DNA from: a virus
Taxonomy: Duplodnaviria > Heunggongvirae > Uroviricota > Caudoviricetes
Virus record (IMG/VR): IMGVR_UViG_2690316269_000016
Span: 1 to 18,733 of that record
Reading direction: 5' to 3' (one strand)
DNA length: 18,733 nt
Position numbers: made by a program. Numbering within the stretch: position 1 is the first letter of the stretch; every line of letters starts with the position of its first letter. This document shows, piece after piece, positions 1 through 3,000 of the stretch.

Positions 1-3000
1 ATGTTTTGCGAAGAAAAAGTAGCTCAAATGGCTGCATACCTACTTCTTAAGCGAGGTGGGCGCATGGCATATCTGAAATTGATGAAGTTGCTCTATCTGT
101 CTAACCGCCAGTCGATTTTGAAGCATGGCAGGATGATCGGCGAAGATAGCCTTTACTCTATGAAATTTGGACCAGTCATGTCGAATACGCTGAACTTGAT
201 TCGCGGTAAGGCTGAAGGCATTGGTGACTACTGGTACAACTTGATAGAGACGAACGGGCATAATGTATCGTTGCGTTCAGATCCGAGGGAAATGGATGCA
301 GACGAGGTCTTTGATGAATTGAGTCGTGCAGATATCCGGATTTTAGATGAAATCTATTCTCGGTATGGGCATATGAACCGATTTGATCTCGCAAATATGA
401 CGCATTTAGAAAGCGTTTGTCCAGAGTGGCACGATCCTGGCAATTCTCGTAAGCCTATAGACCTGAAAGAAATGCTGATCAGTGAGGGTAAAAGCGAGGA
501 TGAGGCTAATCGCATAATTGGCAAAATGGAAGAATCTCAGAAACTTAAGGAATTTTCTTTGCAATTATCATGACGGATTATCAGCCATACAGGAAAGGAA
601 CTGTGCTTGCCCCAACTGGGCCATGCAATCATCTTCATGTGATTTGTAATGATCCTGTTTATTACCCCGTTAACGATTGTTATTGTGTTTTAGTTGTTAA
701 TATTTCTAGTATCAAGGATGGTGTCCCCCACGATCCGTCTTGCGTCTTGAATTCTGGTGATCATCGCTTTATCAAGCATCCAAGTTATGTTGTTTACGCT
801 GAAGCTATAATTTGGCGAGTGGATAACATGGTTAGAAAGCAGCGATCGGGTGAGATTTCTGTTCATGATGATATGCCAGAAGCTACATTCAATAGAATTC
901 TGGACGGTTTTGATATCTCTGATGAAGTTACGCCAAAGAACCTTAAATTTAAAAATAAATATTGCGTATCATCTATTGATGATGAGTAAACAACAGGAAT
1001 TGTTTCGGTATAACTTCAGGAGTTTTCTATGGAAGATCAAAAAGCAACCAAGCCACAGGTTAAGTTCGACACAATGAAAGCATTCGCAGGTATGGGTGCT
1101 GCTGTTGAAGTTCTGATGAAGGCTGCTCCTAATGCGTTCACTCACGCTACTGTCTCTGGTAAAGAGCAGCAGGGTAAGCTTCGTCGTCGCAAAGCAGCAT
1201 GATCATAGCTGGTGCTTTTTGAAAACCCGCCTTTAGGCGGGTTTTTTATTTAGTGATGTTCTTTGCCCTTCTGTTTGCTTGTTCTGACCTGTTCCCACTC
1301 GATACGTCCTTCTTCTCGTCTTTTGTCTATGTATTCCGCAAGATCCTGAATATTGATGCAACGTTTTGCTTTTTGTGATGTGCCGATGCGATATGTTGGA
1401 ACGGGCAACTTACAAGCGTTTGCTTTTGCTTCTGCCGTGGCTGGACTCATGCCAAAGTACTTTTGGCTAACTGCTGAGAGTTCAATGTTAGGGGTATTGA
1501 ATTCAGCCATCAGTAAAAACAAGGTGTTCATAATTTTCTCCATCAAAACCGGCTGCACCCGGGAAAATCATAATTCTGTGCTGGTGGCAGGAATTAATTT
1601 CTGCCAGATAGCGGAAACATATTTTGCCTGATGACGGGCATCAGCCAGGGCGTTGTGCCGTTCGCCATCGAAAGGCATGTCCATTTTGGGGTCGAATCCG
1701 ATGGAACGCCCAAGCGTAACGATCGTGCGTACATCGTGGTCATTCCAGTATGCCCACGGGCAGATTTGTCCTGCTCGCTCATAAGCTCCACGTAAAATTA
1801 CGTTGTCGAAGGTGGCTCCGTTACCCCAGACTTTTAAATATTTCGTATTGTCTGCGTGCCGGTTAATGAAATGATTTAGTTCTGAGAGAGCATCGCTGAT
1901 CGACAAAGTATCATCAATACAGATTGCAGCTCGTGCTTCAGGGCTTTGTTTCAACCACCACAGGATGGTATCGCCGTCAGGTGTAGCTCCTTGCCCCATA
2001 GCACTTTCCAGGCTAACAACCGTATAGAATTCTTGTCCGATGTCTCCGGTTTCTGGAGTGAAGAACACCGCGCCAATGGAAACGATCGGTGCATCCTTAT
2101 TTTTCCCCATCGTCTCAAGGTCGATCATTAAGTTGTTCATCACTTCACCTCTTGTGATGGTTTTGCTGCAAAATACTCGATACCTTTATCCCAGATAGAT
2201 TTTATGGTCGACCACGTGACTGGCACTTTAATTTCAATACGTCCGCTCCCGTCACAGGTATCGCAATCATCATCGCCAAAGCATTCCAGGCAGCTTATAA
2301 ACGTAGTTTCTGAAAATTCACCGGATAGCGCCCCCTTAGCGCCGTTCTCGGCTGTTAGTCTCTTCGGCACCATAACCCAACCATCCGGAGTTACCGGAGA
2401 GTTGCCAGACAGTGCGTTCTGCAATCGTTCCAGCTTAACGTATTCCTGAACCCTGTTTCCGTCGCACGCCTGAAGCCATTGCACAGCCTTTTGCGCATCA
2501 GTGTGAAAGGCACAAGTGCGACCGTCATCAAATTGCATTTCGTAGAGGTCAGCAACCTGTTTAAACTGCGTTTGTGGCAACTTGTAAGCCTGGCTTGCAG
2601 GTACGGCACCATAGAGCATGGCAGCGCGGCAGGCGTTCCAGCCTTCATCAAAACCGACTATGCCATTATTTAAAGACGGACGAGCATCTGGCACCACCGG
2701 CACTGGCTTGGCTATATATAGCGGCTGAACATACCAGCCCTTTGATAACCAACTGTCAGCAATGTTTTTACTCCTGGTTATTGCCGGAATACCTAAGCCA
2801 TTGTCTGAATGCAGCCATGCCACCGGATCCTCTTCCAGCGATGCCAGAGCAATTTCATAAGCACGGCGCTCAACATTGTCTCGCACGTCCATGCTGCTGA
2901 TTCGTTCTTTGATTTCTTTAATCAGTTCTTTATCGGTAAATGTGGTCATTATGCTCCAGCCTCCGGTGCTTTTGGCATTACTGCCCAGTGAGTGATGTTG

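Follow-up and report, generated by a model that had tools for sequence, protein, structure and literature searches.

The small gene described here encodes a protein of 57 amino acids (aa) and lies on the plus strand of an 18,733-nucleotide (nt) stretch of DNA, hereafter the window, which corresponds to positions 1 to 18,733 of the IMG/VR virus record IMGVR_UViG_2690316269_000016 (Caudoviricetes). On the same strand it is preceded by the genes for PanA, an antitoxin with a Panacea (DUF4065) domain, and for a putative PanT toxin, and it is followed by an intrinsic terminator and by a convergent gene for a PrtN-family excisionase. The start of the PanT gene overlaps the PanA stop by 4 nt, and 39 nt separate its end from the small gene. 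Like the small gene, the excisionase gene belongs to a conserved backbone flank. Coordinates are given in Table 1.

Table 1. Features at the small-gene locus, in window coordinates.
Feature	Position	Strand	Sequence	Basis
PanA, Panacea/DUF4065-domain antitoxin, 190 aa	1..573	+		Pfam PF13274, E 2e-19
Putative PanT toxin, 139 aa	570..989	+		phrog_19071; homologues paired with DUF4065 genes in other phages
Right-hand swap junction	1016..1019	.		BLAST L002 vs L003; upstream classes
Shine-Dalgarno sequence, 6 nt 5' of ATG	1017..1022	+	CAGGAG	sequence
57-aa protein gene	1029..1202 (ATG 1029, TGA 1200-1202)	+	MEDQKATKPQVKFDTMKAFAGMGAAVEVLMKAAPNAFTHATVSGKEQQGKLRRRKAA	ORF list, annotations, PHROG match
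Short 3' untranslated region	1203..1221	+	TCATAGCTGGTGCTTTTTG	alignments, folds
Intrinsic terminator	1222..1247 (stem 1222-1231/1236-1245, T-run 1242-1247)	both	AAAACCCGCC-TTTA-GGCGGGTTTT	scan, folding
PrtN-family excisionase gene	1250..1558 (RefSeq start: 1250-1531)	-		PF11112, E 4e-23; phrog_1300 'excisionase'

The product of the small gene is identical to RefSeq WP_000390072.1, a 'hypothetical protein', and has as its family counterpart gp24 of phage mEp460 (YP_007112098), which is likewise annotated as hypothetical. It belongs to PHROG 2741, which carries the label 'unknown function' and which it matches over its full length (phrog_2741, E 8.4e-36, with residues 1-57 aligned to all 57 profile positions). 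Among 5.8 billion proteins searched there were 48 relatives, and those with a named host are all from Enterobacterales (Escherichia, Salmonella, Enterobacter, Atlantibacter, Franconibacter, Cronobacter and Hafnia); further copies, from Edwardsiella, Photorhabdus, Serratia and Brenneria, came to light in neighbourhood look-ups. In a profile search of 1.84 billion representative proteins the family comprised 13 small-protein clusters of 53-77 aa, and the same search found no connection to a larger or known family. Members share a core, (K/R)FDTxxAFxxMGAAV(E/D)xLxKAAPxxF, and a segment (E)xQG(K/R)xRxxK. The gene is present in 562 of 5,426 complete E. coli genomes (~10%).

Comparison of the coding sequences points to selection on the protein. 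Third codon positions hold 11-16 of the 20-29 nucleotide differences that separate the window copy from diverged copies, and the Nei-Gojobori ratio of nonsynonymous to synonymous substitution rates (dN/dS) is 0.17 at the median and at most 0.33 across 85 pairs with dS > 0.15. The reading frame is conserved, and the objection that it might not be, raised when the gene was first proposed, falls away because dN/dS is low and the substitutions are biased towards synonymous changes. A GGAG/GAGG Shine-Dalgarno core is retained at every homologous locus despite divergence farther upstream, and such a core at a spacing of 5-10 nt precedes just three of the 101 open reading frames (ORFs) of 40-80 aa on the two strands of the window. 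We have little doubt that ORF 1029-1202 is a real gene.

The 57-aa protein has a mass of 6.2 kDa, a pI of 10.2, 11 Lys and Arg residues, 11 Ala residues and a GRAVY of -0.55. Its central segment is amphipathic and not membrane-like, the maximum Kyte-Doolittle mean over 19 residues being 1.01, and the protein therefore does not have the transmembrane helix of type I and other small membrane toxins such as Hok, Ldr, TisB and Ibs. The AF2 model (24 sequences, pLDDT 66) predicts one helix at residues 15-32, extending to residue 37, with low-confidence ends that are probably flexible. Neither the protein nor its alignment matched anything in Pfam (E <= 0.1), NCBIfam, PADLOC or the PDB sequences, and no RHH/DUF1778 domain was found in it with Pfam at E <= 0.1 or with its profile against the PDB sequences. 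At E <= 1, PADLOC-DB 2.0 gave no match for the 57-aa protein, for PanA, for PanT or for the GNAT-fold partner introduced below, and a literature search by accession found no paper that names any of these four proteins or the excisionase.

In the window, the PanA-PanT message, with the small gene as its last cistron, is most likely the only transcript of that gene, and translation would use the gene's own Shine-Dalgarno sequence. A promoter scan detected no promoter-like site in the 39-nt gap 5' of the ORF or inside the 139-aa PanT gene, and the first terminator after PanA, the 139-aa gene and the small ORF is the hairpin at 1222-1247; as neither a terminator nor an evident promoter intervenes, the three genes would be co-transcribed. 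The hexamer TATAAC at 1009-1014 was considered as a promoter for the small gene and rejected, since it has no usable -35 element and transcription would start within the Shine-Dalgarno sequence. The hairpin begins about 18 bases past the stop codon of the small gene and folds with -19.3 kcal/mol on the plus strand (z -3.2) and -18.1 kcal/mol on the minus strand (z -5.1). A gap of 4 nt separates its base from the excisionase stop codon (1250-1252, minus strand), for which reason it plausibly works in both directions.

The first-pass annotation had described a 57-aa ORF with a CAGGAG Shine-Dalgarno sequence and a strong terminator directly after it, and in both respects it was right. Its picture of a compact expression unit with its own terminator holds for the ribosome-binding site, but the scan found no promoter for the gene itself here, and the terminator is common to the PanA-PanT string and the excisionase gene. 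Likewise, the Ala-rich composition and the tail KLRRRKAA are as described, but the centre of the protein is not hydrophobic enough for a membrane helix.

The short 3' untranslated region is able to pair with the final codons of the gene (AAAGCAGCA/TGGTGCTTT in the folds) and is almost invariant among the Escherichia, Enterobacter, Pseudescherichia and Franconibacter copies. Nearly all lineages have a terminator after the small gene, with other stem sequences in the distant ones, and none is evident after the Photorhabdus copy in the alignments and folds. Strong conservation of the 3' region among closer relatives, together with a hairpin that is strong on both strands, would fit an RNA as the functional element, acting as a small RNA (sRNA) module or as an insulator for the excisionase gene, with the ORF incidental. 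We give this explanation next to no weight: the dN/dS of the coding sequence and the retention of protein motifs where synonymous sites are saturated speak for the protein, distant lineages replace the terminator sequence and keep the protein, and no Rfam family reached its threshold. The locus may still act through both protein and RNA. Rfam 15 returned only sub-threshold matches for the window (the best at 29.4 bits, the gathering score being 55), all of them due to the terminator hairpin, and the same kind of sub-threshold, terminator-driven match for the mEp460 locus. A 3'-derived sRNA is unsupported beyond the close relatives, the distant lineages having different terminators.

A reported sRNA does have its locus elsewhere in the window. 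Both 'full length' primers for the 193-nt ArcA-modulated sRNA-17 of E. coli K1 RS218 match exactly at 5357-5550 on the plus strand (PMC7719688, Table S2), where ORFs at 4856-5404 (minus strand) and 5476-5808 (plus strand) overlap it; the authors had defined an 'intergenic region' after removing hypothetical-protein genes (PMC7719688). The idea that sRNA-17, from an mEp460-like prophage (PMC7719688), represents the small-gene locus was ruled out: the positions of the primers make the two unrelated.

The transcription unit to which the small gene now belongs begins with PanA, whose promoter lies outside the window; at another locus, L001, a promoter-like TTGACC-17-TAAACT is found ~125 nt 5' of PanA. 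RefSeq places the PanT start 33 nt downstream of the one in Table 1 (128 aa; L001 3614-4000), whereas phage records use the 139-aa start; the ATG there overlaps the PanA stop (ATGA), an arrangement more in keeping with a coupled toxin-antitoxin pair. The small gene comes third after the pair, on the same strand and 39 nt away, with no terminator or promoter between and with a terminator in common, and in E. coli it is constantly linked to this PanA-PanT pair. The first-pass annotation had suggested a third component of the cargo module as one possibility; as such the protein might be an accessory regulator, chaperone or second antitoxin of PanA-PanT. The position is what a third component requires (same strand, a distance of at most 100 nt and no longer operon), a necessary feature but an insufficient one, and the Panacea study allows for occasional accessory third genes, which it considers rare and probably outside toxicity or neutralisation (PMC8832971).

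The comparative data contradict such a role. PanT has homologues, 35-53% identical, in phages of Yersinia (YeP1-3), Vibrio, Pseudomonas, Klebsiella and Helicobacter, seven records outside E. coli in all, and none of these phages encodes the 57-aa protein, the Vibrio and Pseudomonas records included. In the two that we examined, Yersinia YeP1 and Klebsiella phi12.5, a DUF4065-type gene and the PanT gene are followed by a convergent gene, with no third gene. Among 50,697 phage records the 57-aa protein was found in five, all of them E. coli phages. Co-occurrence of the small gene with PanA-PanT across species was therefore not found, and its synteny with Panacea genes is limited to one lineage of E. 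coli prophages. The small gene is older than this association, has another partner in every other lineage examined except Cronobacter, and was kept through a swap of cassettes whose junction shows PanA-PanT inserted beside a pre-existing gene, as described below. The suggestion of a third component is largely refuted by these observations, and we regard an accessory role in PanA-PanT as very unlikely.

The native partner of the small gene is a different one. In mEp460 the gene upstream is not PanT and encodes gp23, a hypothetical protein of 177 aa, and a gene for a protein of ~178 aa is found upstream in mEp460, Salmonella, Enterobacter, Pseudescherichia, Franconibacter, Hafnia, Edwardsiella, Photorhabdus, Serratia and Brenneria. 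The order is the same in every lineage examined other than that of the window and Cronobacter: the ~178-aa gene, a spacer of 93-196 nt, the 53-61-aa gene and, in nearly every copy, a terminator. A homologue of the small gene lies within 500 nt downstream in 80 of 80 retrieved IMG/VR loci that encode the 178-aa protein (79 by pattern and one by eye), a count to be read in the light of near-clonal E. coli loci, with co-occurrence counts resting on ~14 independent lineages. Over all loci compared, the upstream neighbour of the small gene is of three kinds: the 178-aa gene, PanT or, in Cronobacter, an 88-aa gene. The small protein is the obligate downstream partner of the 178-aa protein in a mobile cassette.

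The 178-aa partner has the fold of a GNAT acetyltransferase, and its best structural matches include the solved toxins TacT3, TacT2, AtaT and KacT. Matches of its profile to HIV gp41 were disregarded as coiled-coil or low-complexity noise. At least four distinct cargo ('moron') slots are occupied by the cassette: in E. coli and Salmonella prophages at dusA, the interval from attP to the excisionase gene; in Hafnia, Serratia, Edwardsiella and Enterobacter phages, the late region 5' of the holin gene, past the antiterminator where this is annotated; in Photorhabdus, a site amid the tail genes; and in Brenneria, the position right after a cI-like repressor gene. In one metagenomic contig it adjoins cas3. 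Because these locations are classic cargo positions, the pair behaves as a mobile unit.

Two loci deserve a description of their own. In Hafnia contigs (L090-L092, ~3150-4109 of L090) a gene of 319-352 aa with a RelA/SpoT domain (toxSAS-like) lies ~210 nt 5' of the cassette, between the late-gene antiterminator and the holin, so that several candidate toxin modules are stacked in one slot. Cronobacter (L097-L099, 4667-5156) has a second orphaned form, in which an 88-aa gene without a family match is followed by a 51-aa homologue of the small gene; it is in the opposite orientation and is placed between a 488-aa ORF, which adjoins the gene for the terminase small subunit, and the portal and head genes.

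How the small gene came to stand beside PanA-PanT is seen by comparing mEp460, of the GNAT type, with Lys8385Vzw, which like the window is of the PanA-PanT type. Homology between the two ends just to the right of the attP/dusA-like core and restarts 13 nt before the ATG of the small gene (L002:4001/L003:4027), from where 98% identity continues through the excisionase and exonuclease genes; strict identity begins at GGAGTTTTCTATG, window position 1019. To the left of the junction is PanA-PanT DNA without a counterpart in the mEp460-type locus. Since homology stops and resumes in this way, an 803-bp segment (promoter, GNAT gene and spacer) has been exchanged for one of 1,208 bp (promoter, PanA and PanT), and the Shine-Dalgarno sequence, coding sequence, terminator and excisionase flank of the small gene were left untouched. 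No GNAT homologue is present elsewhere within the window. Among the 562 E. coli genomes with the small gene, the junction was of the PanT type in 207 and of the GNAT type in 358, and the 174-nt gene differs between the two types by only 1-2 nt, from which it follows that the swap is recent. It is very likely, on this evidence, that the small gene of the window is an orphan of the GNAT cassette.

The prophage resides at dusA, and a 5' dusA-like fragment is annotated beside the cargo (L001 2654-3011; L002 2944-3283; L003 2557-3011). The attP core is located between the integrase gene and the side of the cargo and excisionase genes, which would put the integrase at the far end of the prophage from the excisionase in the integrated state. 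The segment from attP to the small gene is a hot-spot of cargo exchange, of either the GNAT or the PanA-PanT type. In one Salmonella prophage (L274, 3881-4348), a 155-aa gene with HTH and 2TM domains, on the minus strand, has been inserted ahead of the excisionase gene and past the terminator of the small gene, which makes that downstream side an insertion point as well.

In 207 E. coli genomes the orphan has stayed intact where the GNAT gene is missing, which could be taken to mean that the small protein is an independent effector with a target in the host or the phage. It might for example bind nucleic acid, the ribosome or a host protein by its basic tails; the GNAT protein would be only a modifier or regulator, and the gene would go on working as a lysogenic-conversion factor beside PanA-PanT. 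The gene has its own Shine-Dalgarno sequence and a terminator, the product is basic at pI 10.2, and it sits in cargo slots that are expressed in lysogens. The swap, however, is too recent, at 1-2 nt, for intactness to show selection, the other orphaned lineage, that of Cronobacter, has lost the C-terminal tail, and the protein has no homology to characterised proteins. Nothing positive favours the independent lysogenic-conversion protein that had been suggested when the gene was first noticed, and we consider an independent effector unlikely.

The spacer of the intact cassette holds a further element. At the stop codon of the GNAT gene a motif T(A/G)(G/T)AC-N16-18-TA(G/C)(G/T)AT, with variable bases in its spacer, is kept in all lineages. 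We read it as a candidate sigma-70-type promoter, with eight of 12 consensus matches, slightly under the threshold of the scan; it suggests a separate promoter for the small gene in the intact cassette, with a leader of ~100-165 nt. In the spacer of mEp460 (L002 3815-4013), and in the corresponding region of L005-L009, L095, L093, L100, L104 and L106, the motif takes the form TAGAC-N16-18-TAGGAT. Two or three hairpins are conserved in the spacer: UUACC..GGUAA, ACCAAUCG..CGAUUGGU and, next to the Shine-Dalgarno sequence, GAGAC..GUCUC. RNAalifold gave no consensus for the spacer over all lineages and, in close relatives, short hairpins with little covariation, and on that account we make no structural claim for the spacer RNA; it had no Rfam match. 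In the window the promoter-like motif and the leader hairpins are absent, having been replaced.

A GNAT fold upstream would also be compatible with the small protein being a substrate of the enzyme, acetylated at its N-terminus or lysines, or an activator, with the modified product as the active species and the small protein inert by itself. This is improbable in our view, as tRNA-acetylating toxins score equally well among the fold matches of the partner, MK starts are common, and a promoter of its own would have no obvious rationale for a mere substrate.

The C-terminus is the other conserved feature of the family. All full-length members, including the most distant matches of the profile search, terminate in xAA or xVA (KAA, VAA, AVA, EAA or QAA), preceded by a basic stretch; the Cronobacter copies, from the sole other lineage without the GNAT gene, are without the xAA tail. 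Degrons recognised by ClpX at the C-terminus include those of MuA, CILEQNRRKKAI (...EQNRRKKAI), and the ssrA tag, AANDENYALAA (PMC12723719). The tail of the window protein, EQQGKLRRRKAA, which is basic and ends in Ala-Ala, resembles both the MuA sequence and the ...YALAA of ssrA (PMC12723719). For the 57-aa protein this is a resemblance of motif, and turnover by ClpXP is putative.

The best explanation overall, to which we would give an even chance of being right, is that the small gene is the orphaned, antitoxin-like partner of a GNAT enzyme, left behind by a cassette swap. A recent recombination, with its cut ~10 nt before the ATG of the small gene, exchanged the GNAT gene, its promoter and the leader for PanA-PanT with its own promoter. 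As neutralising or immunity partner of the GNAT enzyme, the small protein would bind it through the central helix and would be short-lived owing to the conserved basic C-terminal tail with its final Ala-Ala. It would do no harm in the absence of the enzyme, and in the window it may serve as a free-standing 'anti-addiction' immunity factor against incoming GNAT cassettes, or it may be a neutral remnant.

The antidote role, taken by itself, is tentative and falls somewhat short of probable. It is proposed because the dependence is one-sided, the small gene surviving alone but no GNAT gene being seen without it, as would be expected of a toxin and its antidote; because an additional promoter seems to serve the small gene, as is often the case for immunity and antitoxin genes; because a single helix with flexible ends is the usual build of a neutralising peptide; and because the conserved degron-like C-terminus would make the protein labile. 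The reverse assignment, with the small protein as the toxin and the GNAT enzyme as its antidote, has a precedent in TopAI/YjhQ-like pairs, in which an acetyltransferase is the antitoxin, and small basic helical proteins can be toxic. We think it most improbable, given that the small gene is intact, with a good Shine-Dalgarno sequence and in an expressed operon, in the 207 genomes without the GNAT gene, that the GNAT gene is the one never found unaccompanied, and that the protein has no membrane-type hydrophobic helix.

Several points weigh against the small protein as an orphaned antidote. The physical or functional link between it and the GNAT protein is one that we infer, and the toxicity of the GNAT protein is putative. 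The fold of the partner fits harmless N-terminal acetyltransferases as well as tRNA-acetylating toxins, the 178-aa protein matches no Pfam acetyltransferase model and nothing real in the PDB sequences, and no PADLOC model matches either protein. Known GNAT toxin-antitoxin pairs have a different gene order from this one, in which the small gene follows the enzyme gene at ~150 nt, and their RHH/DUF1778 domain is missing here. The linkage comes from the ~14 lineages mentioned above, the degron-like tail is a lead drawn from its sequence motif, and, the swap being recent, an intact orphan is no evidence of present usefulness. More doubtful again is a wider proposal, that the GNAT protein and the 53-61-aa protein constitute an undescribed two-gene toxin-immunity or abortive-infection family of Enterobacterales prophages. 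Such a family would be unusually organised: the gene for the enzyme would precede that for the antidote, which would have a promoter to itself, a structured leader and a ClpX-type C-terminal degron. The window would then carry a natural 'orphan antidote'.

For the window the outcome is a correction, in that the small gene is not to be assigned to the Panacea module. It marks the edge of a cargo-exchange hot-spot that extends from attP to the excisionase gene in mEp460-like prophages at dusA. What was already known was the annotation as a hypothetical gene; what is new is an explained genomic context, and the whole cassette is of more interest than the gene in the window. The full cassette of GNAT and small protein is present in ~6.6% of the 5,426 complete E. 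coli genomes, and it moves among at least four cargo slots in prophages of ten or more enterobacterial genera. Should it prove to be a toxin-immunity or defence pair, it would be a GNAT system with a new kind of antidote, and the window would provide a clean natural example of one addiction module replacing another with the old antidote left behind. The orphan might then give cross-immunity against incoming phages with an intact cassette.

Among characterised systems the nearest kind is the GNAT/RHH (DUF1778) toxin-antitoxin family (PMC9177977), in which, for systems of the TacAT, AtaRT, KacAT and ItaRT type, a short C-terminal segment of the antitoxin blocks the toxin (PDB titles). The likeness lies in a GNAT-fold enzyme tightly linked to a small protein on mobile elements. 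The small protein of the window, by contrast, has no RHH/DUF1778 domain and is predicted to be a single helix; its gene lies downstream after a leader of 93-196 nt, whereas the antitoxin genes of those systems are upstream or overlapping; and its partner is without a Pfam acetyltransferase match, of putative toxicity and encoded by a gene absent from the window. Because it lacks an RHH domain, has the reversed order with a long leader and has a partner whose toxicity is putative, we do not count it as a member of the GNAT/RHH family. The NetFlax paper makes no mention of GNAT. A further comparison is with orphan antitoxin and immunity genes, such as those that remain after the loss of a colicin or toxin gene. 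The immunity function of the small protein is hypothetical here and the toxicity of its partner putative, unlike in those cases; the shared pattern is that the protective half is kept without the harmful half, and that in the intact cassette this half apparently has its own promoter, as colicin immunity genes do.

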